Shown: piece by piece, positions 13,307 to 41,436 of the stretch | Layout: every line of letters starts with the position of its first letter | How positions within the stretch are numbered: the first letter of the stretch is position 1 | Source of the DNA: a candidate division WOR-3 bacterium | GTDB lineage: Bacteria; Hydrothermota; UBA3073 | Direction: 5' to 3' | Length of the DNA: 64,000 nt | Assembly: GCA_023129165.1 (NCBI GenBank) | Contig: JAGMCL010000119.1 | Coordinates: 4,714 to 68,713, forward strand | Made by a program: the position numbers and the translations under genes | The notes under the pieces: generated by a model | What the model was told of the DNA's origin: nothing | What the model saw: the letters and a program-made list of their open reading frames with translations, nothing else | Databases searched by the model: none

Positions 13307-13694
13307 CTTTTCCCTCCCTTAACCATATGGGGTAGTGTGCAAAATCTAACCACAGATTCACCCTGTTAAATATCTTAACAATGAATGTCAGAAGGCTACA
13401 GTGAACGCTTCTATTAAACAGGGTGAACCCTGTTAAATAGTTACAAAATTGAGTACAAGTAATCACTCCTAGTACTTTATTTAACAGGGGAACCACAGAG
13501 AATCTTTAGTATTAAGGGATTATAAAATATTTTTTATTCCTCTACTCCCTGCCCCGCCGATGGCGGGGTGAATGACCTCTGTGGTTCCTTTCGTGTTCTT
13601 TCATATTTTATTTAAAACCACCCAAGATATCTCGTTAAATATCAACCGTACATATTCATAGGATCCGTACGAACGGGTCGTAAATTCTTTGGTC

Positions 13695-15084: not shown

Positions 15085-15495
15085 ATTTTTGGCATTGTCC
15101 CAAACTCTTGTTATGATAGATAATATGAAACCTTTTATTGTGTGCTATAGCGTTGCAATCTCATTTTTCTATAACTATCCACCCTTAAATGCGATTGCTT
15201 CGCTTAGGCTCGCAATGACAAAGTGTTTTATGCGATTGCTTCGCTTAGGCTCGCAATGACAAAGTGTTTTATGCGATTGCTTCGCCTACCTGCCGGCAGG
15301 CAGGTTGTCCGTCAAGAAGTACGACGGACGCCTCGCAATGACATGGAAGAAGTTGTCATATTGTGAGAACTTCTGGGAAATAAAGCTTTTATCTACCCCC
15401 GACTTTGGCTGGGCAGACAGATTGAATTGAAAATTATTGATATCCAATATATATGGCTTTAACGCTATCATGTAACTTTGGGACATTCCCTAAAA
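15085..15495. mobile_element. MITE-like non-coding insertion with imperfect terminal inverted repeats (candidate)
   Basis: TTTTGGCATTGTCCCAAA (15085) versus the inverse TTTGGGACATTCCCTAAAA (15478). The inverted repeats are flanked by the direct repeat ATTAAAATGTAAA (15011 and 15497). The interior carries 41-bp tandem repeats and GATTGCTTCG / CGCAATGAC REP motifs. Confidence 0.3.
15189..15286. repeat. 41-bp tandem repeat, about 2.4 copies (atgcgattgcttcgcttaggctcgcaatgacaaagtgtttt)
   Basis: Two exact adjacent copies plus a partial third. The unit contains the ATTGC...GCAAT inverted motif shared with elements at 18.5, 23.9, 24.25 and 62.3 kb. Confidence 0.8.
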
Positions 15496-15573
15496 TTAAA
15501 ATGTAAAATTTAAAAACAAACTAACAACTGCTACTGATTTACCTATTATCTTTCACCTGACACCTGATACCAA

Positions 15574-17325
15574 TCACCTAACGAGCAGGTCCACCTGTCC
15601 TGATAATTTAGACGATTTCCTGAAGGTTTCCTCATATTTCAATGAAAACTGTATTGATTTTAAAGGCTTATATCTTATTACAATATAATTCCTCTTTCCA
15701 TGTCCAGTTATAAATCTGTTTCCCATAACGCCTGGAAGCCCGCTCTCGTATTCTGTAAACCTAAATCTCGAAAGATCGCTGTCAAAAATTATGTATCTAT
15801 AGTGTAAAGATAATGTTTTCATAGGCTGTATAAATATATCACCATAAACAAGTTCTCCTGAGAGAATATCATTTTCCCTTGCCCATTCTGTTCTCAGTCT
15901 TAATCCTATCTCTTTTACAGGCTTCAAATCCAAATCAATCCTTACAAACCTTACATAATCCTCTTGCTTACATTTATATTTATAACTTATACCAACACTT
16001 AACTCCTTTCTTATCTGCCTTTTGCCGATTACTCTGTATTCATTCCCTTTTCCTGGAAGAGGATCGTCTTCCCATTCCATATGGTCACCGTAAAGAATTA
16101 TCTCTGTTTTTGGAAAAGGTTTGTAGACTATTGATGTATACACCCCTCTATCATTCAATACACCATAAGAGGATATTCTCCTGTCAGAGAACGGTGATGA
16201 GTGAGGGGAGAAAAAGGTTGTTGGAAGGTATCGATAAATAACATCCAGAACAAACTTATCTCCCTTAATGTTAAAACCACATACAGTCGCTATATGCCTT
16301 GAATAGGCAACCTCTCCAAAAAAGGTAAGCCTATTCTTATTAACACAAAAATTTACAGAAAATGGCGAATAAGACCTTACCTCATTCTCGTTGTAATCTG
16401 ATGCATGGTAGTATGTCCATCCGATAGTTCCAAATTCTCCTGAGACATCCAGATGCCCACCATATATCGTTTCCCTTGCTCTATCCTTCCTTTCTTCCCA
16501 TCCCAATGTAGTATGCTCTGCTGAATATGTATAATATATTGAATCACTACCTCTTGCATCAAGTGTAGCATACGAGTAGAATAGTGATAGACATGCAGCT
16601 CCAAAATTCTTAGTACGACAGGCTATTCCCCTCTCATATGTGTTCTCTCCTGTAATTGTATATAGATAGGTTCCCTTTCTTCTTGTTGAATAAGGAGAAC
16701 CCTTGAATGTGAGGACAGGGGAACCCAGAATAAGTCTTTCTCCAAAATCAAGTCCGTAATATCCAACAATCAGGTTTTCTAAAATACCTATACTCTTTAC
16801 CTCAATTCCAAATGCAAGGAAATCTGTAATATCTTTCTCCCCTGCATCCTTTTCCGTAAGAAAGCATCCTCTGAATCTTCCATAATCTATGAGCGTTCTC
16901 ATATATGCTTTGAGAGGATTACCAGGGGTATTTTCATCCTCAGGTCGTTTTCGCTCTATTCTCACCCTCACCCTGAACTCTGGATGAACAGTCCGTACTC
17001 TTAAAATAGGAGCAGTTTCTATCCTTATATATGGTTCTATTCTCGAATAGACAACAGCAGGTAATATATCTTTTAAGGACTCCTTGTTAATAAAACCACC
17101 TCTTTTCTCTCTCGCCCTGATTATATCATCTGCAATTTTATTATCTATATAAGGAATAAGAAGGAGCTCATCTATAGTGGCTGCGTTAATATCAATCGGA
17201 TTTTCCTTTAGTTCATCTATCAGTTCTATTAACTCCTCTGATGCCTCGCCTTCAATATCAGTTTCAAACTCTTGCGGAAAGATGCTTACACTAATAAGAA
17301 GAAGTAGAATACAGAATTTCTTCAT
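15574..17325 (-). CDS. ComEA-like helix-hairpin-helix domain fused to a putative outer-membrane beta-barrel
   Basis: Signal peptide MKKFCILLLLISVSIF. IDINAATIDELLLIPYIDNKIADDIIRAREKRGGFINKESLKDIL matches the ComEA HhH DNA-binding motif. It is followed by about 480 aa of Y/R-rich alternating beta-strand pattern. The ATG at 17325 (GAGGGTGA RBS) lies 5 nt past the recA stop. Confidence 0.5.
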   Translation of the reverse strand: MKKFCILLLLISVSIFPQEFETDIEGEASEELIELIDELKENPIDINAATIDELLLIPYIDNKIADDIIRAREKRGGFINKESLKDILPAVVYSRIEPYIRIETAPILRVRTVHPEFRVRVRIERKRPEDENTPGNPLKAYMRTLIDYGRFRGCFLTEKDAGEKDITDFLAFGIEVKSIGILENLIVGYYGLDFGERLILGSPVLTFKGSPYSTRRKGTYLYTITGENTYERGIACRTKNFGAACLSLFYSYATLDARGSDSIYYTYSAEHTTLGWEERKDRARETIYGGHLDVSGEFGTIGWTYYHASDYNENEVRSYSPFSVNFCVNKNRLTFFGEVAYSRHIATVCGFNIKGDKFVLDVIYRYLPTTFFSPHSSPFSDRRISSYGVLNDRGVYTSIVYKPFPKTEIILYGDHMEWEDDPLPGKGNEYRVIGKRQIRKELSVGISYKYKCKQEDYVRFVRIDLDLKPVKEIGLRLRTEWARENDILSGELVYGDIFIQPMKTLSLHYRYIIFDSDLSRFRFTEYESGLPGVMGNRFITGHGKRNYIVIRYKPLKSIQFSLKYEETFRKSSKLSGQVDLLVR

Positions 17326-17330
17326 AATGC

Positions 17331-18350
17331 TCAATCACCCTCATCGGTCTCTTTGCCCCTTAAAAGACCAAGTTTCTCCTTTATCCTACTCTCGATTTCA
17401 TCCCTCAACTCAGTATGTGAATAAAGATACTCAACTGCATTCTCTCTGCCCTGTCCAAGCCTTTCGTTACCATATGAAAACCATGTTCCTGATTTTGTTA
17501 CAATTTCCTCCTTCACACCAATATCAATGAGTTCTCCCTCCTTTGAAATCCCCTTACCAAACAGTATGTCAAATTCTGCATCCCTGAAAGGTGGAGCAAG
17601 TTTATTCTTTACCACCCTTACCAAAAGGTGATTCCCTATGCTCTGCTCACCCTTTTTTATTGAAGATACACGTCTAATATCCAGCCTTATAGATGCATGG
17701 AACTTTAAGGCAAGTCCCCCGGGAGTGGTCATCGGATTTCCAAATATAACCCCAATCTTCATCCTCTCCTGGTTTATGAATATAGTTGCTGTCTTGGATT
17801 TTGAAAGTACACCGGTGAGTTTTCTCAATGCCTGTGACATAAGCCTTGCCTGGAGTCCCATATGAGAATCACCCATATCACCCTCTATCTCTGCCCTTGG
17901 TACAAGTGCGGCGACAGAATCAATGACTATTATATCGGTAGCGCCACTCCTTGCAAGAGTCTCAGTAATTTCAAGTGCCTGCTCACCTGTATCAGGCTGG
18001 GATATTAATAGGTTATCCACATCAACTCCGAGATTCTTCGCATAAGTCGGATCAAGTGCATGCTCGGCATCAATGAATGCAGCCACACCACCTTTTTTCT
18101 GAGCCTCTGCCAACATATGAAGAGCAATCGTGGTCTTTCCTGAAGACTCAGGTCCAAATATCTCCATTACCCTGCCTCTCGGAATACCACCAATACCTAA
18201 AGCAAAATCAAGTGATATTGAGCCAGTTGGTATTGCATCTTCCTCCCATCTAACTTCTTTCTCGCCCAATCTCATAATGCTGCCCTTTCCAAATGTCTTT
18301 TCAATCTGTTGGATAGCATGTTCAAGGCTTTTTTTTCTCTCCTCCTCCAT
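17331..18350 (-). CDS. recA: recombinase RecA
   Basis: ...[15 protein letters not shown]...[16 protein letters not shown] (Walker A) ...IDAEHALDP...[17 protein letters not shown]... matches RecA over its full length. Confidence 0.95.
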
Positions 18351-18375
18351 AACTACCTCCTGGTATAATATTTGT

Positions 18376-18985
18376 TAGTGTGCAAAATCTAACCACAGAC
18401 CTGCCTGCCCTGCCTACCGGCAGGCAGGCGTCAGGCAGGGAAGTCCCTCCTACAATAAAAAAATGAGATTGCTTCACCTTCGGTTCGCAATGACAGCATC
18501 CGGAATGCGATTGCTTCGCCAATCCGTCGCACTTCTTGACGGACGACGGACTTGCAACGACAAAGACATTTATAGAACAGGGATTTGCCTGCTTGACGCA
18601 GTCAAATAAGAGAATTTTAATAGAAAAATTTTTTTTCTTTATCTAAAATCTCATTCAAGTCTCGTCTCTACCTATCGGCAGACAGGCAAGTCCCTGTTAA
18701 GAAGAGATAGGATTGCTTCGTCCGTCAATCGACGGACTCCTCGCAATGACAGTACGTGTTACCTGTCGTTCGAAGGCTAAAGCCTTCGGCTACCATTTCT
18801 AAATTATGGAGTGCCTGCCTGCGGTAGGCAGGCAATAACCGTGATATTGCTTACCCCGCCAAGGCGGGGTACTCCAAAAAGTTGTCATTGCGAACGAACG
18901 AAGTGAGTGTGGCAATCTCATTTGTTATACTTACGTACACCCCAAAAAGAGATTGCTTCGTCCGTCAATCGACGGACTCCCACCA
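18376..18985. repeat. cluster of REP/MITE-like palindromic elements (no coding capacity)
   Basis: The cluster contains three sequence families. TAGTGTGCAAAATCTAACCACAG is also found at 13327. The CCTGCCTGCCGGCAGGCAGG-type palindromes recur at 15276, 24076 and 28786. GATTGCTTCG...CGCAATGAC units and CCCCGCCaaGGCGGGG hairpins are also present. The sub-block 18711-18985 is repeated at 23960-24275. Confidence 0.6.
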
Positions 18986-19021
18986 CAACATTACACATTA
19001 AACATTTAACATCTAACAATT
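18981..19021. repeat. heptamer microsatellite (N-AACAT-N)n
   Basis: caacattacacattaaacatttaacatctaacaatt. The same repeat type recurs at 19183-19248 and 62395-62530. Confidence 0.6.
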
Positions 19022-19182
19022 TCTTTATCGCGACTAGGACGTTATTCCTACCGTCACTCTTCCCCGTTTTACAATTCCTCGCTTTACGCTTTATTTATCC
19101 CGTAGAATGCGCAGCTATTCTATCGGGACTCCATACTCCCTACATTCTTCCTTCTTTTCGCAACCAGGAGGTTGCTCCTACC

Positions 19183-19248
19183 ACATCCAACATTCCACAA
19201 ACATTAAACATCTAACATTCAACATTAAACATGTAACATTCCAACAGT
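19183..19248. repeat. heptamer microsatellite (N-AACAT-N)n, second array
   Basis: cacatccaacattccacaaacattaaacatctaacattcaacattaaacatgtaacattccaacag. Confidence 0.6.
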
Positions 19249-19293
19249 CTGAAGACTGTCACTCCATATAACCACAGAATATTCCATCAACTA

Positions 19294-19908
19294 TTATACC
19301 CTATCATATAGTATAAGACTAAGGACAACCTTACCCTTGTTACCTTCCTCTCTGATATATTTAGACCCTCCTATTACACGTGTAGCCAGTATAATAAAAG
19401 AGATAGATAATGAAATTCCAAACGTCCAGAGTGGTTCTGGAAAAATAAGTGTAAGAATTGGTACAATACACATAAGGACAAATGTAGGAAGAGCTGAGCT
19501 CTTTATTATTATAGTAAGTAATATAAAAGCCCCAAATCCACACATCGCCTCAAGAGGAAGAAGGTAAAACAGCACACCACAGGAGGTTGCAAGACCTCTC
19601 CCCTCACCCTTGAACCGTAAAAATATTGGCCAATTATGTCCCACTATCGCTGAGATGCCAGCAATACTTGCCACAGGCTCTTCAAAACCAACTAATGTAA
19701 GTATAAATATCGGTACTATACCCTTTATAAAATCCGCAAAAAATACTAAAACGGCTGGCAAGAAACCTATGAGAGTATATACATTCGATGCACCTATTCG
19801 CTGGTATCCCTCCTTCCTTATATCCTTCCCAGCAATCCTACCAGCAATGTACCCGAATGGGATAGAACCGAAGAGATAGCCCAAGAGTATCGATGGGATG
19901 TATAACAT
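19294..19908 (-). CDS. plsY: glycerol-3-phosphate acyltransferase PlsY
   Basis: 204-aa polytopic membrane protein. GHNWPIFLRFKGEGRGLATSCGVL matches the PlsY signature. Confidence 0.8.
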   Translation of the reverse strand: MLYIPSILLGYLFGSIPFGYIAGRIAGKDIRKEGYQRIGASNVYTLIGFLPAVLVFFADFIKGIVPIFILTLVGFEEPVASIAGISAIVGHNWPIFLRFKGEGRGLATSCGVLFYLLPLEAMCGFGAFILLTIIIKSSALPTFVLMCIVPILTLIFPEPLWTFGISLSISFIILATRVIGGSKYIREEGNKGKVVLSLILYDRV

Positions 19909-20029
19909 AATAAAATGTCAAATTTCCAATTACCAATATCCAATGAATATCAAATTCCTAAATTCTCAAATCATTTGACATTTGGGCTTTTATTAGGAAT
20001 TGGAAATTCGGATTTTGAAATTCTACTAT

Positions 20030-21853
20030 TTATTCCACTGTTACACTCTTTGCAAGGTTCCTTGGTTTGTCTACGTCAAGACCCCTCATTACCGCAATAT
20101 GATATGCAAGAAGTTGTAGAGGTATAGTCGTGAGTATTGGGGAAAGCATATCTATAGTCAATGGAACTTCAACAGCATAATCCACGAGATTTTTTATCTC
20201 TTCATCACCCTCTGATATTACTGCAAGCACAATACCCTTCCGGCACTTCACCTCCTGAATATTCGATATTATCTTGTCATATACCATACTCTTTGTGGCG
20301 ATAAATACAACAGGCATTTTCTCATCTATAAGAGCTATTGGTCCATGTTTCATCTCTGCAGCAGGATAGCCCTCTGCGTGTATGTAGGATATCTCCTTCA
20401 ATTTCAATGCTCCCTCAAGTGCAACTGGATAGTTATAGCTTCTACCAAGAAACAAAAAGTTGTTGCTTTTATAAAACTTCCTGGCAATATTCATAATTTT
20501 CTTGTTCTGTTTTAACACCTTACCTACCCTCGAGGGCAACTCCGAGATGGCCTCAACAATTTCTCTACCTTCCTCATATGAGAGGTGTCTTATTCTGCCA
20601 AGCAAAAGTGCCACCATTGAAAGAACTATAACCTGTGAGGTAAATGCCTTTGTCGAAGCAACACCAATCTCCGGACCCGCATGTATATATATACCACCAT
20701 CTGTTTTTCTCGCAATACTGCTGCCAACAACATTACAAATACCCAGTGTAAGAGCTCCCTTTCTTTTAGCCTCCTTCACTGCAGCAAGAGTATCTGCTGT
20801 CTCGCCGGATTGAGTTATGGCGAAAACAACACTTCTCTCATCAAGAATCGGACTCCTATATCTGAACTCCGACGCATACTCTACCTCGCAGGCTATTCCC
20901 GCTGTTTTTTCAATCATATACTCTCCCACAAGTCCGGCATGCCAGGCTGTCCCGCAAGCTGTAAGGATTATACGCTCCGCATCTTGCAGGGCTTCAAGAT
21001 TCATATCAAGACCATCAAGCCTTGCTATACCTTCAGTAAAATTTAATCTACCCCTTATTGCATTTTCTAACGTCGTGGGTTGTTCAAATATCTCTTTCAA
21101 CATGTAATGGGGATATCCACCCTTTTCAATCTCATCAAGCGTCCATGTAACCTCCTCAATCTTTGGAATTATCTCATCCTCGTTTAGATTTGTTACCATG
21201 TAACCCTCATCAGTAATACTCGCAAGTTCTCCATCCTCAAGATAAACGACCTCTCTCGTATAATGTATAAGAGCAGCCACATCAGAGGCAACAAAATATT
21301 CATCCTTCCCCTGACCTACAACAAGGGGAGACCCCATCCTTGCAATAACTATCTCCCTTTTTCTCTTATGTATAACTGCTATACCATAAGTTCCCTCAAC
21401 TTCGGCAAGGGCAAATCTCGTTGCCTGAAGAAGGTCTCCTTTATAATATTCCTCAACAAGGTGTGCAATTACCTCGGTATCAGTAGGGGTGCGAAATTTA
21501 TGACCTTTTCTCTTTAAAAACTCTCTTAATGTATTATTATTCTCAATGATACCGTTATGTACAACTGCAATCTCTCCAGAACAATCTAAATGAGGATGCG
21601 CATTTGAATCACTTGGCTCCCCGTGTGTTGCCCATCTTGTATGAGCTATGCCTATGGTGGAATGAATCTTTAAATTAGAGATTTCCTTTTCAAGTTCGCT
21701 TATCCTTCCTGCCTTTTTCTGTAGAATCAGGTCATTGTCTGCCAGAACAGCAATACCTGCTGAATCATAACCCCGGTATTCAAGCCGTTTAATCCCATCT
21801 ATAAGGATTGGAACTGCCTCTTTTTTACCTATATATCCAACAATACCACACAT
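20030..21853 (-). CDS. glmS: glutamine--fructose-6-phosphate aminotransferase
   Basis: The N-terminus MCGIVGYIG has the nucleophilic Cys2. It is followed by an Ntn amidotransferase domain and two SIS domains. 607 aa, ending ...KSVTVE. Confidence 0.95.
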   Translation of the reverse strand: MCGIVGYIGKKEAVPILIDGIKRLEYRGYDSAGIAVLADNDLILQKKAGRISELEKEISNLKIHSTIGIAHTRWATHGEPSDSNAHPHLDCSGEIAVVHNGIIENNNTLREFLKRKGHKFRTPTDTEVIAHLVEEYYKGDLLQATRFALAEVEGTYGIAVIHKRKREIVIARMGSPLVVGQGKDEYFVASDVAALIHYTREVVYLEDGELASITDEGYMVTNLNEDEIIPKIEEVTWTLDEIEKGGYPHYMLKEIFEQPTTLENAIRGRLNFTEGIARLDGLDMNLEALQDAERIILTACGTAWHAGLVGEYMIEKTAGIACEVEYASEFRYRSPILDERSVVFAITQSGETADTLAAVKEAKRKGALTLGICNVVGSSIARKTDGGIYIHAGPEIGVASTKAFTSQVIVLSMVALLLGRIRHLSYEEGREIVEAISELPSRVGKVLKQNKKIMNIARKFYKSNNFLFLGRSYNYPVALEGALKLKEISYIHAEGYPAAEMKHGPIALIDEKMPVVFIATKSMVYDKIISNIQEVKCRKGIVLAVISEGDEEIKNLVDYAVEVPLTIDMLSPILTTIPLQLLAYHIAVMRGLDVDKPRNLAKSVTVE

Positions 21854-21892
21854 AAGACTAACAAATCAAAAATTAAATATCAAAATGCAAAA

Positions 21893-23191
21893 TTATAGCA
21901 ATGCGCTTTTTGCTTTTTTAATCAACATATTGCAGGTCTCTTCCTTTTCAGCCTCACAGATGATTCTTATTACATCTTCCGTGTTTGACTTTCGGATATG
22001 TATAAAGGCATCATCATAATCAATACGTAAACCATCCTCATCTCTCAACTCACCATCAGGGAGAACTTTAGTAAGCCTCTCGAAGTCAATATCGCCAGTC
22101 TTATTGACCTTTTCCTTCTTCATATAGAAGAACGGAAGTCTTTTTATAAGTTTAGATATAGATTCCTTCTCTTCTGCCATATACTCAAGAATGAGCGAGA
22201 TGGCTGATAGTCCATCTCTTGTTAGATGCATATCTGGCCAGATTACACCACCGTTCCCTTCTCCCCCAAATATGGCACCAACCTTTCTCATCTTCTGTAC
22301 TACATTCACTTCTCCAACCTTTGTACGTTCAACATAGTTACCTGCAATATATTCAATCATCCTTGAGGTGGAAAGATTGGTTACCACCTTGCCTTTCCTT
22401 TTTTTAAAAATATGTGACAAAGCCATGGCGAGTGTGTATTCCTCTCCCGGAACCTCACCTTCATTTGTTATTACAGCAATCCTGTCTCCATCCATATCTG
22501 AGGCAAAACCTATGTCAAAATCTCCCATCCTGCAGGCATCCCCGACCTTATGTAGATTTGATGGAAGGGGCTCGGGATTTCTTTTTGTATCCATAATTGT
22601 GACATAACAACCTAAAAGCTCGAGAAGTTGCTGTGCAGGAGAGGAAAGCGCCCCAAAACAACCATCAAATATAACCCTGAACTCTTTCTCCCTTATACTC
22701 TCAATATTAACAAGTCCAAGAATTCTATCTATATGCCTTTTAAGCCCATCTCCATCATACTCTACTATTCCAACCTGTTCCCACGATTCTAAGTTAAAGT
22801 CTTCCCTAGCATAAATCCTATATAATTCCTTTACATCTTCCTCTGAAAGGAAAAGTCCTTTCTTATCATTGAATTTCAAACCATTCCAATCAAGAGGATT
22901 GTGTGATGCTGTAACAACAACACCTCCACTTTTGTTCAACAGAGAGGTGTTAAGGAGTACTGTAGGAGTTGGAACTACACCAAGATTTATTATAGAATTC
23001 CCGGTAGATAGAAATCCGCTTGTAAATGCATTAAGTATCAAATCACTAGTTCTGCGTGTATCTCTTCCGATAACAATATTACCTGATAAAAAATTTCCGA
23101 ATGATAAGCCAAAGGCAAGAGAATCCTGTGGAAAGAAAGAGGAATTAACTATACCCCTTACACCGGAGATACCAAGGATGAGGCCCGACAT
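21893..23191 (-). CDS. phosphoglucosamine/phosphohexose mutase (GlmM-like)
   Basis: GISGVRGIV...GRDTR...VVVTASHNPLDWNGLKF contains the active-site Ser loop of the alpha-D-phosphohexomutase family. The gene is adjacent to glmS, with a 39-nt gap. Confidence 0.7.
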   Translation of the reverse strand: MSGLILGISGVRGIVNSSFFPQDSLAFGLSFGNFLSGNIVIGRDTRRTSDLILNAFTSGFLSTGNSIINLGVVPTPTVLLNTSLLNKSGGVVVTASHNPLDWNGLKFNDKKGLFLSEEDVKELYRIYAREDFNLESWEQVGIVEYDGDGLKRHIDRILGLVNIESIREKEFRVIFDGCFGALSSPAQQLLELLGCYVTIMDTKRNPEPLPSNLHKVGDACRMGDFDIGFASDMDGDRIAVITNEGEVPGEEYTLAMALSHIFKKRKGKVVTNLSTSRMIEYIAGNYVERTKVGEVNVVQKMRKVGAIFGGEGNGGVIWPDMHLTRDGLSAISLILEYMAEEKESISKLIKRLPFFYMKKEKVNKTGDIDFERLTKVLPDGELRDEDGLRIDYDDAFIHIRKSNTEDVIRIICEAEKEETCNMLIKKAKSALL

Positions 23192-23291
23192 ATAATTATA
23201 TCAAAAATCAAATAGTAAAAGTAGCCACTGATTTCACTGATTGGAAAACATTCTTTAATTTTAAAAATCTTAAAAATTTGAAGCTATCTTT

Positions 23292-23364
23292 AGCCGATGA
23301 GCGGGGTCGAACCGCTGACCTGCGCATTACGAATGCGCTGCTCTACCAACTGAGCTACATCGGC
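23292..23364 (-). tRNA. tRNA-Thr (anticodon CGT)
   Basis: Minus-strand sequence GCCGATGTAGCTCAGTTGGTAGAGCAGCGCATTCGTAATGCGCAGGTCAGCGGTTCGACCCCGCTCATCGGCT folds into a clean cloverleaf. The anticodon loop is TTCGTAA and the T-loop is TTCGACC. CCA is not encoded. Confidence 0.85.
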
Positions 23365-23769
23365 AATCTCTTTTTTGGACGCAGATTTACCCCGTTAAAT
23401 AGAACCGTCCCAGCGACACTCCGACATTTATTTTAAGTTATTTAACGGGGTGAACGCAGATAATATTTATTTCTTATATCTATAAGACCCTTTCCACCTG
23501 CATTTGTGCCTATTTCTTCGAACTCTCCAGATATTTTTCAAGTAAATCATAGAATCAGTGTATCAGTTGGAAGGATACCAGAGCAACAGAATACCAGGTT
23601 CTGATTTACTGATAATCTATTAACTGATCCTCTGTTATCCTGATAAGCCTATTACCTGTAACTATCTATCCCGCTTTCTTCGGGATCCCGCCAAAGGCGG
23701 GACATCCAATTTCTTCTTTATAGCAAGAGACGGAATTTCACCCAGTACCATTTGAATACATTGAAAATT

Positions 23770-23842
23770 TGGCGAGAGACGGGATCGAACCGTCGACACC
23801 TGGATTTTCAGTCCAGTGCTCTACCTACTGAGCTATCTCGCC
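23770..23842 (-). tRNA. tRNA-Phe (anticodon GAA)
   Basis: Minus-strand sequence GGCGAGATAGCTCAGTAGGTAGAGCACTGGACTGAAAATCCAGGTGTCGACGGTTCGATCCCGTCTCTCGCCA folds into a cloverleaf. The anticodon loop is CTGAAAA. Confidence 0.85.
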
Positions 23843-23912
23843 TTTTTCAAACAACCTTTTAAACAATCTGAATTATATCATAAAAAACAAGAAATGTCAA
23901 GGAAAAATTAAA

Positions 23913-24330
23913 CATAAGCGATTGCTTCGCTCACGCTCGCAATGAATAGGTGTTGTATGCGATTGCTTCTTCCGTCAATCCGTCACACTTCTTGACGGAC
24001 GACTGACTCGTAATGATAGTACGTGTTACCTATCGTTCGCAGGTTAAAACCTGCGGCTACCATTTATAGACTTTGGAGTGCCTGCCTGCGGTAGGCAGGC
24101 TGTGACCGCGTTTACCCTGTAGAGGAATACTCTACTATGGGGTCACAGTGGTGCCCCGCTATAGCGGGGTACTCCAAAAAGCTGTCATTGCGAACGAACG
24201 AAGTGAGTGTGGCAATCTCATTTGTTATACTTACATACACCCCAAAAAGAGATTGCTTCGCTTACACTCGCAATGACAAGGTGTTGTATGTGATTGCTTC
24301 TTCCGATAGTCAACCAGACACTCGCAAGTC
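23913..24330. repeat. REP/MITE-like composite element, second copy of the ~270-bp unit at 18711-18985
   Basis: Long collinear matches include ...tccgtcaatc[cg]...cgcaatga..gtacgtgttacct.tcgttcg..gg.taaa.cc..cggctaccattt..ggagtgcctgcctgcggtaggcaggc...ccccgc..ggcggggtactccaaaaag.tgtcattgcgaacgaacgaagtgagtgtggcaatctcatttgttatacttac.tacaccccaaaaagagattgcttcg. Confidence 0.6.
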
Positions 24331-24400
24331 TTAACAGGGATTATTGTGTTTAGCGTGAATGACTGCAGGCAAATAAGGCTTTTAGGCTATCTATTAACAA

Positions 24401-24428
24401 AAAAGGGGGGCAAAAAGCCCCCCTTTTA
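24401..24428 (-). terminator. bidirectional intrinsic terminator
   Basis: aaaaGGGGGGCaaaaaGCCCCCCtttt gives a 7-bp G/C stem flanked by A and T runs. It lies 10 nt downstream of the stop of the 24439 gene. Confidence 0.7.
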
Positions 24429-24438
24429 GTTTCAAAAA

Positions 24439-27400
24439 CTATCTCAAGAGCACAAGTTTGCCCATCTTCTCATATCCTTCGGCGTCCATCTTGTAGAAGT
24501 AAATTCCAGAGGGCAGTCTAATACCTTCATCACTTGACCCATCCCATCTATATGAATGATGTCCTGCACCAAGCTTTTCATCAACAAGTCTCTTTACGAG
24601 TCTACCTGAAGCATCATATACCAATATACTTACATCCATAACATCTATAAGTGCAAACTTGATTGTCGTTCCTGTAGTAAACGGATTAGGCGAAATTAAC
24701 TCTATACCAGTAAAATCTACACCCTCTATTCCAGTGCAAATCTTCTTTACGGTTATATCAAATCGCCTTATCTCGCCAGGTGCCTTTCTGTTCAATAAAA
24801 GAACGGGATTTGTTAGTATAGCTTCAATATCAGTGTCCGCAACCTTCCTGGAAGTGTTAATAATATCGTAACTGCTTCTGTCAGCCATTTTAAGCTCATT
24901 ACCAGACTCATCTGTAATAATGAATTCGTATCCACTCACATCACCCTCAAACTCCCAGGACAGCTCTACAGTTTCATTATTCGTATTAAGCTCTATCTCG
25001 ACTGGAATGTTCATTGTTCCTTCAAAATTCTCAAGCTTAAGATGCTTGAAGCCAGCATCACCTTGAGGGATATAAAGCATCACATACTCATCCAGTGGAA
25101 CTATAAACTCAACAACCGATAATGCCCTTGAGTCATCCGACATACCCACATAATTATACTCATCTACAAGGTCTCCTGACTTTAGAGACAGCTTGAGCTG
25201 CCAATCCCAGGTAGCCTGTGAATTATTTTCCCTGTCTCCCTCACTATTGGAACTCATACATATAGCAGGTAAGCTATAATCTGCAATCATGGGTGTGCTC
25301 TTAATAGGAGGTGTCCATGGGGTAAAGAGTTGTGCAGGGAAGGTTACACTGCCAAGACCAGGATCTGCTACCTGTACCCAGAAACCCATCATAGCTTCTA
25401 TCCACCCGTCCCAACTACCGGGATATACGAGATACTGATATCCATCGAAGCACTGTGCAACATAATTTACATTATTCAACTGCAGGCTATCAAAATGAAT
25501 CGCACCATACATACCATTCTTAGGCGTAAGCATAGACCAATAAGGAAACGGAACTCCGATAAGATTCCATCCATAAATGTAAGGGTTAGGATAAGTACGG
25601 GATACGAATATCTCATGAGGAAGGATGATTGGTGTACCCATCACATCTGCATAGTCAGCAGTAAAGTTACCTAACATATAGCCTCCTGCAGGATATCCAG
25701 ATGGAAAACCCACATACGAAGGATAGAAGTATGCTCCTGTCCACTCGTCAAATCCATATGTATTAACCGCCTTTGTTGGTAAATCATCCCCCCATGCATG
25801 GTCAGACTCCGGTACATCATATGGGGGTAATAGTATTGCCGGCACACTCACAAGATTCCATCCTGTATGCAGGTCAATCCAGGTTACTATCTCAAGACGA
25901 GTTTGGCCACCATAACACCCCATGTCGTTTCGGCTTCCATCCCAATCATTATATGACGGGTCTGGGTCGCCTGCATCGATACAGGGTGAACCCCAGGTAA
26001 GCTGAAGCCAGGTCCTATTAACAAGAGGGTCTTGAAAGATATTATTATCCATAAATATAGCACCAAATGGGTCGATAACATCAGCAACTCCATTTTCATA
26101 GAGGTCTGAGTATGTCAAGTCTACTGGATATCCCGACTTCTTATCCAACCACCAAAACGGAAAGTCCCAACAAACACCACAACCTGAATTCCATGCTATA
26201 ATATTATTTTTCATCTCACTCTTAGAGAATACGATATAGACACCGCCTGCTGGTATATCAGTACCTAACACTACATCATCTATAGCCATATCAGCATTTT
26301 CATCTGCTACAGCATTGAATGCAATCATTATATTATCTACTATTGTTTTATCTGTTAGATAAGGAGATAAATCCAGAGTTGCCTTATACCACTGCCAGTT
26401 GTACCACGGCCAAGTCCCACCAGAATTGACTACATCGGCTGAATCGCCGAATGTCCATAGATTATCCCAGGTAATACCACCATCAGTTGAAATCTTCACA
26501 AATAGATCACCATGGTCCTCTACCACATGCCAATACCAACTTGATTTCCACCAGAAAGAAAGGAAGATGCCTGATAATCCATCCACATAAATATCAGGAG
26601 TAATGAGCCACTCATCTAAATCATATCCCCAGGGACAGAGTGCACCATACAGCCCAGTGTGACAATAAGACCAAGGATCTGATTGACGCCAGTGAGCAGT
26701 CTGATAACCCGGACTGCTTAGACCATCTATCACAGTCCATCCAGAAGGTGGGAAGATTCCCTCAAAGCCCTCTGATAATATCGTAAATTTTTCGCTGTGG
26801 GTAACTGGGTCTTCAATATCTCCTTCTTTTACTGTTGGAGGACAGCTTCTACTCATCATATCACCTTCGGATGTTCCTGATGAGGTAACCGCCTTATTTA
26901 CCTTGTCAAAAGTTAAATTCTCAGACTCCCCCATTACTTCATAATCATTCACCATCTCTTTTAGAAGGTCCATATAACCTTCGGGTAATTGCAAACCTTC
27001 TAAATCTATTTTATCCACATATTCATAACCTGCCCAGTTGTCTACAATGGTGTTGTTAATTATATCAACATCTACCGGGAAAAACCCATCTTCCTTTATT
27101 CCAAGATCAGCAAACGAGATAAGAGCAATGGCTCCACCTGAAATCATTGCATAATTTAAGCGGAAGAGGTTATTCTGTATAATTCCAGTACAACAGGAAC
27201 TCCAATAATCCCATTCATCGGTCCATATACAGACAGCCCCTCCTGCACCAATAGGGAAGTAAAACCCCTCATCCTTTGGTGCAGGTCCACCAAGAAAGGG
27301 GAATCCTGCAAAGTTGAGCATAAATACGTTTCTTTCAATCTCCACATCTACAGGTATACTATATCCATCAGGTATACTATATCCACCAATATATTTATCA

Positions 27401-27945
27401 TCACTCGATCCACCACCACCGTAAACGTTAACTGCACCACCCGCGATTCCAAAATTTAATAAGAAGATATTGTTGATTATTTTTACATGGTTCACTTCTG
27501 TTATTATCTTGGTAGGACCTTCAGAATGCCCAATCACCGAAACAGCCCCTCCAAGTAAAAATGTAGCATCATTACCTGAAGATTTAGCACCATCCATATA
27601 ATAGCCGCAAAACAGAAAAACGAAGCCGTCAACAGTAATATAGTCACCCCCAATTATTATAATTCCACCACCCATTTGCTTGTCTGCCTTAGGATGCGGA
27701 CCCATCACATCCCCAAATATAACAGCCTCCCACCTATCACGCGATAAGAGGGTGAGGTCCGTCTTCTCATAAATAACTATGAACTCCATATACTCACCCG
27801 ATGCCACTGATATTGTATCTCCTGACAAAGATGCATCAACTGCTGCCTGGATGGTAGGTTCCTCCTCAGGCACCAGTATCTGTACGGCATATGACGGCAC
27901 ACTGAGAATAAGTGCCGCACAAATTACAAATAAAACCTTATTCAT
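24439..27945 (-). CDS. secreted right-handed beta-helix-like protein with T9SS C-terminal sorting domain
   Basis: Start set at MNKVLFVICAALILSVPSYA (signal peptide). Glycine-rich beta-helix-like repeats are present. The C-terminus ...ISPNPF...VYDASGRLVKRLVDEKLGAGHHSYRWDGSSDEGIRLPSGIYFYKMDAEGYEKMGKLVLLR matches the T9SS CTD. Confidence 0.6.
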   Translation of the reverse strand: MNKVLFVICAALILSVPSYAVQILVPEEEPTIQAAVDASLSGDTISVASGEYMEFIVIYEKTDLTLLSRDRWEAVIFGDVMGPHPKADKQMGGGIIIIGGDYITVDGFVFLFCGYYMDGAKSSGNDATFLLGGAVSVIGHSEGPTKIITEVNHVKIINNIFLLNFGIAGGAVNVYGGGGSSDDKYIGGYSIPDGYSIPVDVEIERNVFMLNFAGFPFLGGPAPKDEGFYFPIGAGGAVCIWTDEWDYWSSCCTGIIQNNLFRLNYAMISGGAIALISFADLGIKEDGFFPVDVDIINNTIVDNWAGYEYVDKIDLEGLQLPEGYMDLLKEMVNDYEVMGESENLTFDKVNKAVTSSGTSEGDMMSRSCPPTVKEGDIEDPVTHSEKFTILSEGFEGIFPPSGWTVIDGLSSPGYQTAHWRQSDPWSYCHTGLYGALCPWGYDLDEWLITPDIYVDGLSGIFLSFWWKSSWYWHVVEDHGDLFVKISTDGGITWDNLWTFGDSADVVNSGGTWPWYNWQWYKATLDLSPYLTDKTIVDNIMIAFNAVADENADMAIDDVVLGTDIPAGGVYIVFSKSEMKNNIIAWNSGCGVCWDFPFWWLDKKSGYPVDLTYSDLYENGVADVIDPFGAIFMDNNIFQDPLVNRTWLQLTWGSPCIDAGDPDPSYNDWDGSRNDMGCYGGQTRLEIVTWIDLHTGWNLVSVPAILLPPYDVPESDHAWGDDLPTKAVNTYGFDEWTGAYFYPSYVGFPSGYPAGGYMLGNFTADYADVMGTPIILPHEIFVSRTYPNPYIYGWNLIGVPFPYWSMLTPKNGMYGAIHFDSLQLNNVNYVAQCFDGYQYLVYPGSWDGWIEAMMGFWVQVADPGLGSVTFPAQLFTPWTPPIKSTPMIADYSLPAICMSSNSEGDRENNSQATWDWQLKLSLKSGDLVDEYNYVGMSDDSRALSVVEFIVPLDEYVMLYIPQGDAGFKHLKLENFEGTMNIPVEIELNTNNETVELSWEFEGDVSGYEFIITDESGNELKMADRSSYDIINTSRKVADTDIEAILTNPVLLLNRKAPGEIRRFDITVKKICTGIEGVDFTGIELISPNPFTTGTTIKFALIDVMDVSILVYDASGRLVKRLVDEKLGAGHHSYRWDGSSDEGIRLPSGIYFYKMDAEGYEKMGKLVLLR

Positions 27946-27981
27946 ACAACCTCCTTTGTTTAAACCACATAAAATACCCAT

Positions 27982-28855
27982 CGGACAGGGACGAGCCCTG
28001 TGTCCCTACATTAATATCGTTTGTCAGGGTGTAGGGACAACCCTTGTGGTTGTCCGTTTATCGGACAGGGACGAGCCCCCTGTCCCTACATTGGGATTTC
28101 ATCCACCAAACCAGAATATGGGTAATCACTTGCATTTTCTACAATTCCTTTGCGTACTGGATTTTGTAATATATAGTCTACAATTTTAATCAGATTTTCA
28201 TCACTCCTTACAATGTGGTCATAAAAACGTCCCTGCCATAATTTACCTGTTCCCTTATACTTCCAGAATATATGGGTGGATTTACTCTTGAATGCCCCTA
28301 TAAACTGTGAAACTGATATCGGACAGGGACGAGCCCTGTCCCTACATTGGGATCGTTTGTCACGGTGTAGGGACAACCCTTGTGGTTGTCCGTGTTGTTG
28401 GACAAGATTGGGCATCAGAAGCAAGTGGAGGTGATCTGGCATAAGGGAGTAAACAAAAATCAAATATCCCATCCGTCTTCTCTCATAGAGCAAACATTCA
28501 ATAACGCCATTTGCAATGTCATAGTTTTCAAAATACGGAATTTTGTCTTTAGTGCAAATTGTTATTGAATAATGTCGTGCTTCACAATAATCAAATTCTT
28601 TGAGTCTTGGAGATTTTCGTTTTTTTAACTTATTTTTATCCATTACCGTACATTGTTGTGGAACAGATGTTGTAGGGACAACCCTTGTGGTTGTCCGTTT
28701 ATCGGACAGGGACGAGCCCCGTCCCTACATTGCACGAGTTTCGGATACATTGTTGTGAAACAGATGTTGTAGGGACAACCCTCCTACCTACCGTCAGGCA
28801 GGTGTGGTTGTCCGTCTATCTGACAGGGACGAGCCCTGTCCCTACATTGCACAAA
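27982..28855. mobile_element. REPtron: RAYT gene flanked by cognate REP/BIME arrays
   Basis: REP1 (GGACAGGGACGAGCCCTGTCCCTACATT) and REP2 (GTAGGGACAACCCTTGTGGTTGTCCG) occur as composite units. They lie left of the RAYT (27982-28095), inside it (28318-28390) and right of it (28648-28855, in two tandem composite units). Confidence 0.7.
28086..28643 (-). CDS. REP-associated tyrosine transposase (RAYT, IS200/IS605-like Y1 HuH transposase)
   Basis: YSLMPDHLHLLLMP carries the HuH motif. KLWQGRFYDHIVRSDENL...YILQNPVRKGIVENASDYPYSG carries the catalytic Tyr region. The ORF has an in-frame ~75-nt REP insert between the two motifs, and its stop codon lies inside a REP. Confidence 0.65.
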   Translation of the reverse strand: MDKNKLKKRKSPRLKEFDYCEARHYSITICTKDKIPYFENYDIANGVIECLLYERRRMGYLIFVYSLMPDHLHLLLMPNLVQQHGQPQGLSLHRDKRSQCRDRARPCPISVSQFIGAFKSKSTHIFWKYKGTGKLWQGRFYDHIVRSDENLIKIVDYILQNPVRKGIVENASDYPYSGLVDEIPM

Positions 28856-32061: not shown

Positions 32062-35000
32062 TTATTCAATAACAATCAATTTCTTTGTTGCTTTGAAGTT
32101 ACCAGCAGAGAGTTTATAGAAGTATATGCCTCTTGCAACCCTGTTACCTGCCTCATCCGTGAGGTTCCAATCAGCATTCTTGTATCCGGCTGTCTCTTCT
32201 CCACTTACAAGCGTCTTTACTACCCTTCCTGTTATATCATATACCATCAAATCAACTCTTGAGGCTTTTGGAAGTCCGTATGAAATACTCACTCTGCCCA
32301 TGGCAGGATTCGGATAACTCTGAGAAAGGAAGTATACCTCCGGTGCCTCATCAACAGCCATCTTTCCTCCACCAACTGTAACCTCTATCTCCATTACATT
32401 ATTATCATAAAGAATTGGTGGTTCAAACGCATTCTGTATAAAGGCACGTAACGTATAAGTATCCTCTGCAGGCACCCAGTCCGTTGAGAACCAGACAGTC
32501 CTTACGCCACGCGGCTCAAGGTTTCTTACATCTTCGGAACTCGAATAGACTATGTTACCTTCAGAATTAATTACCTTCATATATACCCTGAAATTCGCTA
32601 CAGGGCCAATCGGGTTGTTCTCAACTACGGCACATAGATGTACTGCTTGCCCCGGCTGTATCTCATCAAACCCGGGCTGGGAACATATACTATTAACCCA
32701 TGTATCATAGGGCATATGTCCGGTAAGACCTGAACCTGACACATCATCTATATACCAACCAGGATACGGAACAGAGGCATCGGAACCAAAATGCCACCTG
32801 ATAAAGAAGACATCACCTTCATTCACATAAGATGAAATGTCAAAATTTGCAATCTGCCATGAGGTCTCCGAACCTGTGTAACACGGTTCACCAGGAATAC
32901 CCTCATTATCGCTAGATGCTTCATCCTCTGGATAATCTCCATCCGGGTATATTATCTGCCAGGTAGTACCACCATCCGTAGATATCTTGACATTACCACC
33001 ATCAAAGTAACCCTCTATATCATACCAGTGATAGAAAGAGAGGACAGGCTCATCAGAGAGCGTGTAGAAGTCCTTTTCAAGTCTGTAGTCAGCATAGTCT
33101 TCATAATCACCAGCGAGTACCGTTGCCCAGAGATATTCTCCAGAATGGGCAGCACCAGGACCAGATGTTGGAGCACCCCACTGCCAGCCTATCGAACCGT
33201 TTTCATTATAGGCATCAAACCCACCATCAGTGACATCAAACCCTTCATACCAGCCATAGACCGAGAATACCATACTTAGTGTGTCGTTTAACGGATTGAC
33301 ATCTTCTGGACAGGATGCTATAGCAGTAGCAGTATACGTACCCTCAATGGCAAGCCATGTAGTAAATGCTACTGTGTCCCATACATTCGGTCCAACAGTT
33401 ACACTTACATCATCGTAGTATATGCTGCTGCCATTCTCGAACATCTCAAAACTGACCGGGAATATCTCCTGTGTATTACCCCTGTTTACAACCACTACCT
33501 GAGGAGTAATAATATCACCATCAGTAGCTCCTGCAGCCGGTGAGATGATGGCGTTTACCTCGACGTCGTGCTCAGGAACAATCACAGAAATACCGGTTCC
33601 CATAATATAATCAATATACCACTCGTCTGCATAATCACCCTCATATTTAATAGCTATATATCCTGATAGACCACTATATGCGGATAGATCAATGGGACCA
33701 TATAATGTCCAGGCTCCTGAACCAGCAGGTATTACCTCTACCTCGACAAAATCACCATCTGCAGGGTCCGGGCTTCCTGTTGATACCCACAGACCATGAT
33801 ACTCATAAAATGACCCATAATATTGATATTGATAGAACGATAGGTTAGCACCAGAACCAAATTCAAACAGAGGGCTAACAAACCAGTCTTCACAGTTATT
33901 GGAAACATCATCATCATCATGCCAGGCACCATAAGTCCCCTCATAAGGACCAGGGTCACCCCAACTGCCAGGAACGCCTGAGTAGTATAACTGCCACCCG
34001 TTATTGCCTGCAACATCTCCGGTCATGTATGTCTCCCAGCCATAGGGCGGCCAGTCGCCGGACTCAAAGTCCTCTACATAACTTATTGCACCAAATGTTG
34101 AAGTGGCTGTATCATTTGCAGGATTTTCGTCAATATCAAGGTCGGTATAGGAAATTGCCTCATATGAACCCTCTTCTACTGTAAAGTCCGGGAATACGAG
34201 TGTATCAATAACACCGGGTGAGAGTGTTGTATTTATCACCTCTGAATATATCTCAACCTCGGCACCATCATAAATCTTGAAATATGTGTCAAATGTCTCT
34301 GCATTAGCTCCAAAATTCTTTATCCTCGTTCTGGGAGCAACCACTGTACCTGCTGTGTATGTTCCTGATGGCTCGATTATCGAGAGAGCACCAACATCAT
34401 GTTCAGGTGGAGGACCATACTCAACAACACACCTAATTAGCCAGTCACCCTCTACGTCAGTATCTATAGCATAGACGCCATCATAATAATCCCAGGAACA
34501 TCCTGCAGGGGCATTAACCACTGCATCTATTCCAATACCGGGACAGTTTGGATAATTTCCTTCCTGGATATAGAAGATATAAAAATCACCATCGGATATT
34601 ACAATGTTTTCAGAAGTAAGGTCTTCATAGTTCCATGCCCCTCTGACTCCAGTCAGAACAGGGGAATCGTAAAGAACGGTTCCCGGAGCACCACCAGTCC
34701 CATCATCATCCAACAACCTCACCCTGTAATAATCACTACCTGGAGATGGCCAAGAGTCTGGATATAGGAATACGATACTACCGTTGATATTGGCTGGATA
34801 GGAGGTTGGTGTGAGTTTAAATCCCCAACCATTGCCACCATCATAATATGCCCATCCATTGTAATATACACCATCATCGTAATACAGTGTGTCTGGAGGA
34901 ATATAATCACTTACTTCAAATGCACCCTCAAGGGTGTCATTGGAAGGCTCCTCATCTCCAACAAGCCCCGTGTAGGCTAAGGTCGTATATGTACCAAGCA

Positions 35001-41235: not shown

Positions 41236-41436
41236 AAAACCTCCTTTCTTATACCTCGCATCAAATATAAAAAATATAATTATCGGGGTTGGGAAACCCC
41301 TCCTACATCGTTACTACAAATAAACATCTAATCGGGGTTGGGAAACCCCTCCTACATCGTTACGCAAAAAATACCTACTTCGTAGGGCAAGGCTTCAGCC
41401 TTGCGATTAAGCAAACCTGAAGGTTTGCCCTACATT

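Follow-up and report, generated by a model that had tools for sequence, protein, structure and literature searches.

Two similar intergenic blocks in a candidate division WOR-3 genome are probably mosaic clusters of small palindromic repeats

The 64,000-nucleotide stretch of DNA analysed here (the window; candidate division WOR-3 bacterium, GenBank assembly GCA_023129165.1, contig JAGMCL010000119.1, positions 4,714 to 68,713) carries two similar blocks, hereafter copy 1 and copy 2, that lie between genes and are probably mosaics of clustered small palindromic repeats, akin to bacterial interspersed mosaic elements (BIMEs), and not a single gene or transposon. The observations behind this reading are the modular make-up of the blocks, an enrichment of GTAG-tagged hairpins of the repetitive extragenic palindromic (REP) kind, a gene for a REP-associated tyrosine transposase (RAYT), precise insertions and deletions between copies and between strains, dispersal to non-orthologous sites, and assembly breaks. 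The window is part of a 102-kb metagenome scaffold, and the sequence analysed, including its continuation (L004), amounts to about 82 kb (81.6 kb).

An earlier description of the window made from its letters (the sequence-only reading) had proposed two collinear, highly similar blocks in the same orientation, and self-BLAST bears this out: 18711-18960 and 23961-24260 align on the same strand over 300 columns, one long indel included, of which 75.3% are identical (E=3e-51). The ungapped parts are more alike, with 107 nt at 95% (18854-18960 and 24154-24260) and 102 nt at 86% (18740-18841 and 24007-24108), and the similarity extends leftward at 73% over 105 nt (18456-18560 versus 23909-24016). 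In layout, locus 1 reads A-[150 bp]-B and locus 2 reads A-B, with the parts adjacent.

Each block resolves into small palindromic modules. These include a repeat that we call F1, of the form GATTGCTTCG..CTCGCAATGA (GATTGC..GCAATGA), the hairpins H1 and H3, and a mini-hairpin, H2, of the form CCTGCCTACCG(G)CAGGCAGG (CCTGCC..GGCAGG), which is 19 nt long in the blocks and 20 nt elsewhere. The modules of copy 1 and then copy 2 are as follows.

18709 to 18752, plus strand: copy 1, left F1 module, GATTGCTTCG..CTCGCAATGACAG (from the sequence and an F1 motif scan)
18720 to 18737: copy 1, REP hairpin GTCCGTCAATCGACGGAC nested in the left F1 (from the hairpin list); its standalone copies carry a GTAGGA tag
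18771 to 18788 (stem-loop) with CTAC tag at 18790 to 18793, minus strand: copy 1, covarying hairpin H1, a GTAG-tagged REP reading GTAG-C-CGAAGGC-TTTA-GCCTTCG
18808 to 18875: copy 1, outer hairpin GGAGTG..TACTCC, enclosing H2, the GCAATA..TATTGC hairpin and H3
18814 to 18832, minus strand: copy 1, mini-hairpin H2, CCTGCCTGCGGTAGGCAGG, 19 nt
18833 to 18853: copy 1, GCAATA..TATTGC hairpin
18854 to 18869: copy 1, H3, CCCCGCCAAGGCGGGG
18883 to 18980: copy 1, F1 inverted doublet, with a reversed F1 (18883-18919), a spacer, and the 5' part of a forward F1 (18949-18980) whose 3' end is missing
23918 to 24019, plus strand: copy 2, two forward F1 modules, the second (23960-24019) with a long nested hairpin, TCCGTCACACTTCTTGACGGA
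24038 to 24055 with CTAC tag at 24057 to 24060, minus strand: copy 2, H1, CGCAGGT-TAAA-ACCTGCG
24075 to 24175: copy 2, outer hairpin GGAGTG..TACTCC, enclosing H2, a 49-nt palindrome and H3
24081 to 24099: copy 2, H2, CCTGCCTGCGGTAGGCAGG
24100 to 24148: copy 2, 49-nt palindrome CTGTGACC..GGTCACAG with its own nested hairpin
24154 to 24169: copy 2, H3, CCCCGCTATAGCGGGG
24183 to 24278: copy 2, complete F1 inverted doublet, with a reversed F1 (24183-24219), a spacer and a forward F1 (24249-24278)

The outer hairpin is in essence a 28-nt unit, GGAGTG-CCCCGC..GCGGGG-TACTCC. It occurs uninterrupted as GGAGTGCCCCGCCAAAGCGGGGTACTCC in one of the further copies described below (L135), where it folds at z=-6.8, while in the other copies one to three extra hairpins have been inserted at GGAGTG^C and the outer hairpin with its nested modules folds as multi-hairpin domains. 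Within the blocks, H1 and the GTCCGTC hairpin both carry their tag on the right and the other modules are untagged; a regular alternation of two REP types in opposite orientation was not seen there, only in separate REP doublets (36166-36342 and others). Each block is thus a BIME-like mosaic of GTAG-tagged REP hairpins, an F1 inverted doublet, and nested H2 and other hairpins.

The tagged hairpins belong to a larger population. Perfect hairpins bearing a GTAG or CTAC tag number 33 in the 81.6 kb compared with 2.9 in Markov controls (roughly 11-fold enrichment), and H1 of both copies is among them, its CTAC tag beginning 1 nt past the stem. About 30 tagged hairpins fall into some 13 clusters within 82 kb, all on one scaffold rather than a complete genome, and the listed REP family members lie outside long open reading frames (ORFs), with the exception of those inside the RAYT gene. 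The tagged REP types among the block modules are H1, the GTCCGTC..GACGGAC hairpin found inside the left F1 of the block, and a CCCCGCC..GGCGGGG type. A classical inverted REP doublet, GTAGGGCAAGGCTTTAGCCTTGC..GCAAACCTAAAGGTTTGCCCTAC, lies at 36166-36219. The design of H1, GTAG-N-stem7-TTYA-stem7, recurs in REP doublets, both within the window (36166-36342 and 41382-41433) and past its end. This GTAG-TTYA family (A3), whose members other than H1 were chosen for perfect stems, shows two-sided changes at 7 of 7 pairs and no one-sided change, and none of 500 shuffles reaches its covariation score. The changes are exclusively from one Watson-Crick pair to another, which fits DNA palindromes. Mismatches of the G.T and A.C types in tagged hairpins displayed no strand asymmetry, in counts too few to inform.

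Several further observations concern the same repeats. A pair of large paralogous coding segments, 32725-36222 and 37924-41436 (79% identity), share the REP hairpins that follow them (36060-36345 and 41280-41435), namely GGGGTT..AACCCC-TCCTAC and a GCAAGGC/GCAAACC doublet; the repeats were therefore either duplicated with the genes or re-acquired. In the copy at 41 kb, both doublet hairpins carry TTCA/TGAA loops, altered from TTTA/TAAA. Outside the families studied, the hairpins AACAGGGTGAACCCTGTT and ACAGTCTGAAGACTGT recur at 13417-13434, 18578-18698 and 19244-19259 and in the scaffold continuation at about 64274, 69077 and 69423. At 18578-18698 the arms AACAGGGA and TCCCTGTT stand about 105 nt apart, as if a hairpin had later been filled by insertions.

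H1 provides the clearest view of how such a palindrome changes. It reads CGAAGGC-TAAA-GCCTTCG in copy 1 (18771-18788) and CGCAGGT-TAAA-ACCTGCG in copy 2 (24038-24055), each with a 7-bp stem and a 4-nt TAAA loop, and the copies differ at two pairs, on both sides each, with no unpaired change. By simple combinatorics, four changes in the variable 6-bp core, which has 12 positions, would form two complementary pairs with a p of about 0.003. The sequence-only reading had correctly noted two pairs changed on both arms, while its parse of copy 2, with a TAAAA loop and arms of 6 and 5 nt, was off by one. A metagenome-assembled genome (MAG) of a sister strain (L007, GCA_030628885.1) carries a half-changed intermediate, GCAGGC/GCCTTC, with C in place of A at 18773. 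Copy 3 and L135-L137 retain the right arm GCCTGC, and the left arm of copy 2 still has C at this position, which points to GCAGGC/GCCTGC as the ancestral stem. Judged from these sequences, copy 1 would have passed from GCAGGC/GCCTGC through the mismatched GCAGGC/GCCTTC of the sister strain to the re-paired GAAGGC/GCCTTC of the window, and copy 2 would have changed a different pair, one pair in each copy. The idea that assembly created the L007 variant as a chimaera, by joining it to copy 2 or copy 3, was rejected, as its other differences are unlike either copy, although it may be a chimaera with an unseen copy.

The compensation in H1 is genuine and recent. Its cause can be selection or, since quasi-palindromes tend toward correction by template switching, the copying of one arm from the other. 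It had been argued that the covariation implies selection for structure as RNA or as a DNA cruciform; the changes are real and preserve the structure, but they are a general property of the REP family and do not set the blocks apart as a special RNA or cruciform element.

The window also encodes a protein of the type associated with such hairpins.

28086 to 28643, minus strand: REP-associated tyrosine transposase (RAYT) gene, 185 aa (NCBIfam NF047646, Pfam Y1_Tnp, PDB 4ER8)

The protein scores 91.4 bits against NCBIfam NF047646 (cut-off 80) and matches Pfam Y1_Tnp and the structure of Escherichia coli TnpArep (PDB 4ER8). Its gene lies 3.8 kb from copy 2 and has doublets of a GTAGGG hairpin on both sides (27980-28093 and 28649-28852); H2 fills one of these four otherwise identical flanking hairpins (28783-28802). 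Inside the gene, after the HUH motif, an in-frame REP doublet (28318-28404) adds 26-31 residues. An insert of different REP-derived sequence occupies this place in the closest homologues (97-75% identity), among them one from Candidatus Stahlbacteria, and more distant RAYTs of about 158 aa lack it. We infer that a RAYT, this one or another copy, moves these hairpins.

A search for further copies, which the sequence-only reading had proposed, found one more on the scaffold and four elsewhere. Copy 3 (L004:2791-3061, minus strand) is 45 kb away, between genes for a comEC-like protein and a CCA-adding enzyme. The four others (L134-L137), recovered with a pattern conserved in the three scaffold copies, all belong to a single MAG, candidate division WOR-3 bacterium CSMAG_2245, whose coding DNA does not align with that of the source scaffold; the genes flanking them have no homologue in the available 82 kb of scaffold, so that these sites are non-orthologous. 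Modules and spacers are 72-89% identical among the seven copies, whereas ends, order and module content vary in every one. For example, copy 3 and three of the four CSMAG_2245 copies have a longer form of the first hairpin, L135 is circularly permuted, L134 is reduced to the right third and continues into three tandem F1 units, and L137 starts inside the 3' end of F1. At each of the three scaffold loci, 30-95 nt of the right end recur at the left end of that locus, and the phase differs from locus to locus. The block therefore behaves as a reiterated cluster and not as a transposon with defined termini.

These copies also revise the 54-nt palindromic insertion (24100-24153) that had been thought specific to copy 2. 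The palindrome is present in copy 3 and related forms occur in L134 and L135, so that copy 1, which has at this site a shorter hairpin of the same design (GCAATA..TATTGC), is the odd one, and the polarity of the event is opposite to that proposed. The linker pattern GGCTACCATTT-N(6-12)-GGAGTGCCTGCC had no match in a pattern scan of genome contigs, because the linker includes an edge of H2 that is absent from the other copies. A junction pattern fitting all seven copies had no match in the JGI metagenomes or in IMG/VR. As far as these sequences go, the block seems confined to a narrow lineage.

Comparison between strains shows the repeats changing while the genes stand still. The spacer between recA and plsY was compared with L007 (contig DAOVQC010000016.1) and with sister-sample contigs. 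Between the window and L007, 2.8 kb of coding DNA are identical and all 23 differences lie in repeats: one 41-nt F1 unit, two exact 20-nt H2 units, two insertions (one of 4 nt that disrupts a hairpin, one of 2 nt) and 17 point changes. The repeats gained or lost as whole units are listed here.

15189 to 15285, plus strand: tandem array of a 41-nt F1 unit, perfect, 2.4 copies (Tandem Repeats Finder); three F1 units in the window versus two in L007
18400 to 18439, plus strand: one H2 lodged in the loop of a second; the window, L002 and L008 have the inner 20 nt (18409-18428), which L007 and L009 lack
18668 to 18687, plus strand: degenerate H2, CTACCTATCGGCAGACAGGC; exact 20-nt presence or absence between strains, with no flanking direct repeat

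L007, compared over 15100-18867, is 100% identical to the window over a further 8 kb too, but its recA-plsY spacer is the allele of a more divergent strain, L009; either natural recombination or the mixing of two strains in assembly would account for the contig. Exact-protein look-ups with glmS, the glmM-like gene and the RAYT gene returned no match outside the source scaffold, so that the second strain at copy 2 is represented by a single Logan contig, ending at 24233.

The clusters also interrupt independent assemblies: the MAG contig stops at 18867, L008-L010 stop 80-340 bp from recA, and L273 stops at 24233 and 28057; at 24233, where the independent Logan contig stops, the sequence becomes identical to copy 1. 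Repeat clusters of this sort explain why short-read assemblies of these genomes break between genes. Arrays of the heptamer AACATNN (AACATTT, AACATGT, AACATTC and others) also lie near the clusters, including directly after copies 1 and 3 (18987-19012, 19183-19246 and 62390-62527; L004:2775-2800 and L004:3110-3135), and are reminiscent of the short tandemly repeated repetitive (STRR) heptamers of cyanobacteria. An apparent length polymorphism of these arrays between L005 and the window was rejected, as it reflects a run of N in the scaffold.

The H2 mini-hairpin deserves separate treatment. Its sites in the window are 18814-18832, 24081-24099, 18400-18439, 18668-18687, 15285-15304 and 28783-28802. 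It fills copies 1 and 2, and copy 3 and L134-L137 have an exact 19-nt gap at the same point, GGAGTG^C. The canonical 20-mer, CCTGCCTACCGNCAGGCAGG, was found at 14 IMG/VR loci and at least 120 JGI metagenome loci (together L138-L271), and at least 130 unrelated viral and metagenome contigs, which range from 31 to 70% GC and come from many environments, contain the 20-mer CCTGCCTACCGGCAGGCAGG unchanged. Among the matches listed, the base after H2 is C at 98 of 135 sites, variation falls almost wholly at positions 8 and 12, and 22% of the sites are flanked by an inverted repeat of at least 6 bp, compared with 2.7% of random junctions from the same loci (11.9% versus 0.4% for at least 8 bp), an enrichment of about 8-30-fold in the loops of other hairpins, H2 itself included. 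At unrelated metagenome loci, several copies sit inside another H2 in the same position as in the window, and seven filled/empty pairs differ by exactly 20 nt inserted, with no duplication. On these comparisons H2 appears to insert as an exact unit without target duplication, preferentially into the loops of other hairpins. The 20-mer was not found in the literature searched by sequence or by generic phrases. We therefore raise, tentatively and as the less probable side of the question, that H2 could be an undescribed and very widespread ultra-small mobile DNA element. If it is mobile, it would need machinery acting in trans, possibly an HUH/RAYT-type enzyme working on folded single-stranded DNA, that either operates across phyla or travels with the element. 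At one metagenome locus (L258:10400-10540), H2 lies inside a duplicated 5' fragment of a tRNA-Leu-like gene adjoining the intact copy, an arrangement that resembles the attachment-site remnant of an integrated element.

F1 is similarly widespread. It occurs 14 times in the window (at 15193-15340, 18467-18560, 18711, 18886-18980, 23920-24019, 24186-24330 and 62331-62361) and in at least 120 IMG/VR contigs (L012-L131), mostly as inverted doublets with a 22-24-nt spacer and often with other hairpins nested in mid-repeat; of the 54 adjacent F1 pairs among the IMG/VR matches listed, 37 have the (-)(+) doublet design. The idea that F1 is the repeat of a RAYT was rejected, there being no RAYT homologue in the 1.08 Mb of F1-bearing contigs among the matches listed. 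A literature search with the peptide motifs that F1 would encode yielded nothing relevant. Should H2 and F1 prove to move without known enzymes, they would offer a tractable entry into the movement of very small DNA; both could be a source of spurious ORFs in metagenome annotation, recurrent ones in the case of F1.

All the features of the blocks that had appeared surprising are described properties of GTAG REPs and their doublets (REPINs). Alternative complementary stems are the documented norm among REPs (PMC3733652, PMC3116915), compensatory changes are described in REPINs (PMC3116915), REPs are also known to form clusters that are reiterated along with their flanks, to sit within palindromes and to lie inside genes (PMC3733652), and RAYT genes flanked by REPs are on record too (PMC3733652, PMC3116915, PMC2817692). 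On these grounds the blocks are best read as BIME-like REP clusters. Under this model, the repeat units would be made and maintained at the level of DNA: REP hairpins would fold in single-stranded DNA and serve as substrates of the RAYT, new hairpins would land in the loops or junctions of existing ones, and recombination or gene conversion would reiterate clusters and swap them, along with neighbouring spacer DNA, among intergenic sites. REP stems would covary because only copies that still fold get recognised and copied, and template switching at quasi-palindromes may also correct one arm from the other.

Several points weigh against this interpretation. The stems of the hairpins that flank the RAYT gene differ from H1, so that any cognate link is conjectural, and the sole visible RAYT, with its REP-encoded insert of 26-31 aa, may be inactive. 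F1 and H2 lack the unpaired GTAG tag; among the matches listed, RAYT-like genes occur at just 3 of 134 H2 loci and none was found in the F1-bearing contigs. The 98% pairing figure of family A3 is partly built in, given how its members were picked. The completion of the H1 compensation in situ within one strain requires either selection acting at the locus or a mutational bias, beyond selection acting on the element. Finally, the conservation of the non-palindromic block spacers between two species, at 72-89%, could mean constraint and not recent spread, and the orientation of the block relative to its neighbours, the same in all 6 of the 6 copies with co-directional neighbours, could reflect a role at the RNA level.

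The alternatives are best judged against the genes around the blocks, all of which, in this region, lie on the minus strand.

17331 to 18350, minus strand: recA
19294 to 19908, minus strand: plsY
20030 to 21853, minus strand: glmS
21893 to 23191, minus strand: glmM-type mutase
In the segment between the blocks, minus strand: tRNA-Thr and tRNA-Phe
23872 to 24427, minus strand: transcriptional frame of locus 2, with an intrinsic terminator (24427-24401) and a sigma-70-like promoter matching 12 of 12 positions with TG (23900-23872) ahead of tRNA-Phe
24439 to 27981, minus strand: 1180-aa protein with a type IX secretion system (T9SS) tail

Farther along the window, a giant ORF (44856-61205, 5449 aa) has TSP3 and glycoside-hydrolase-like matches and extensive internal repeats.

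The best surviving alternative, unlikely in itself but compatible with the preferred explanation, is that the clusters are kept by the host as DNA or RNA sites, such as transcription barriers, stabilisers of mRNA 3' ends, or binding sites of gyrase or nucleoid proteins. Roles of this kind are described for REPs and BIMEs of E. coli (PMC3733652, PMC2817692), and the position of clusters between co-directional genes, the orientation bias and the conservation of block sequence between two species would all suit it. However, the recA-plsY spacer differs about 5 times more between strains than the adjacent coding DNA, it gains and loses whole hairpins, one of its hairpins is broken by the 4-nt insertion, and no terminator-like tail follows the hairpins.

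A block could instead be a miniature inverted-repeat transposable element (MITE) that transposes as one unit with its inverted F1 modules as terminal inverted repeats. A 12-bp inverted repeat formed by TCGCAATGACAG (starting at 18741) and CTGTCATTGCGA (ending at 18893) does close the core, F1 doublets resemble small elements with terminal inverted repeats in many metagenomes, and the blocks are dispersed at non-orthologous sites. We consider this improbable, as the copies have no common termini (L137, L135 and L134 each depart in their own way, as described above), and none of the seven has a target-site duplication of fixed length, the scaffold loci repeating 30-95 nt of their own right ends instead.

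It is somewhat more improbable still that the blocks constitute a structured non-coding RNA family, whether a small RNA or a cis-regulatory leader or trailer, with helices selected in RNA. The blocks are predicted to fold strongly (z=-6.8 to -8.6), but any string of palindromes would do so. The compensated pairs of H1 would suit an RNA helix, yet the REP family changes from Watson-Crick to Watson-Crick pairs only, with no G.U intermediates, and the few mismatches counted lack strand asymmetry. In six copies of the conserved right half (H3 plus the reversed F1), the stems are invariant and the covariation term, -0.94 kcal/mol, is negligible, so that the block as a unit lends no support to an RNA fold. 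A search of Rfam 15 recovered only the two tRNAs at gathering score and nothing over the blocks even at E<=1; no promoter or terminator of their own stands out, and on the gene strand copy 2 sits between the strong intrinsic terminator of the upstream gene and the tRNA-Phe promoter. Furthermore, ends, order and module content differ in every copy, and each module also occurs alone elsewhere. The outer hairpin does contain a conserved G.T, and two G.T pairs in L135 can wobble only on the plus strand; together with the orientation towards neighbouring genes, alike in all six informative copies, the conserved G.T keeps an RNA or host role open.

Least of all do the blocks look like a recombination device: although the direct repeats, 5.3 kb apart, share 107 nt at 95% identity, 52 consecutive nt of them identical, so that RecA-dependent deletion or duplication is physically possible, the excision, amplification or inversion of the glmS-glmM-plsY-tRNA segment is very improbable, as direct repeats cannot invert a segment, deletion would remove glmS, the glmM-type mutase, plsY, tRNA-Thr and tRNA-Phe, similar clusters everywhere and a third copy 45 kb away make the pair nothing special, and every independent assembly that reaches the junctions keeps the parental arrangement. 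The bracketing of this 5-kb segment, which had seemed notable, is unremarkable because repeat clusters occur about once per 6 kb on the scaffold; the blocks flank glmS-plsY only because clusters recur every few kilobases.

For annotation, it follows from the preferred explanation that the blocks should be labelled neither as an RNA gene nor as a recombination device. The substitution caught half-way between strains gives a rare direct view of palindrome maintenance, and the scaffold extends GTAG-REP/RAYT systems to a WOR-3 / Stahlbacteria-like lineage.

These repeats correspond most closely to the GTAG REP/RAYT systems (REPtrons) and REPIN doublets, as portrayed by Nunvar 2010 (PMC2817692), Bertels and Rainey 2011 (PMC3116915), Di Nocera 2013 (PMC3733652) and Messing 2012 (PMC3479197). 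In both cases, extragenic 18-25-nt hairpins have 6-9-bp stems, carry an unpaired GTAG or CTAC at one end and fall into sub-families set apart by alternative complementary stems. Compensated pairs distinguish the two hairpins of an inverted doublet, hairpins of this kind flank a RAYT gene, and REPs occur inside genes. The present case differs in its host, a WOR-3 / Stahlbacteria-like bacterium outside the phyla surveyed in 2013 (PMC3733652). It differs also in having one GTAGG(A/G) head common to at least six stem types in 82 kb, in the degenerate head of H1 (GTAGC), and in a RAYT with a REP-encoded in-frame insert. Elements of the IS1397/ISKpn1 type are complete insertion sequences or introns that have enzymes of their own and measure at least about 1 kb, whereas the inserts seen here are themselves hairpins of 19-50 nt. 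Insertion into the loops of existing palindromes is common to both, IS1397 and ISKpn1 being cited in PMC3116915 as elements that target REP hairpins.

With the BIMEs and large REP clusters of E. coli, the blocks share a mosaic of palindromic units with conserved linkers, tandem reiteration together with flanks, and a unit number that varies between strains; unlike BIMEs, they mix and nest unrelated hairpin families, their ends are supplied by F1, which is not a GTAG repeat, and the regular Y/Z alternation is not seen. The BOX elements of Streptococcus pneumoniae, which have the modular structure boxA-boxB(n)-boxC, are likewise intergenic repeats whose internal modules vary in number and which are predicted to fold strongly, but they have fixed end modules and one module orientation, whereas the blocks have no fixed ends. 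For H2, the nearest parallel in the comparison is the small dispersed repeats (SDR) of Nostocaceae, which Elhai et al. in 2008 (Genome Res 18:1484) reportedly described as dispersed repeats of about 20 nt that occur inside other repeats, their mobility being deduced from filled and empty homologous sites. H2 resembles them in each of these respects. SDR are reported only in Nostocaceae (PMC5861425), whereas the H2 20-mer, among the matches listed, is unchanged across contigs of widely different base composition and many environments.

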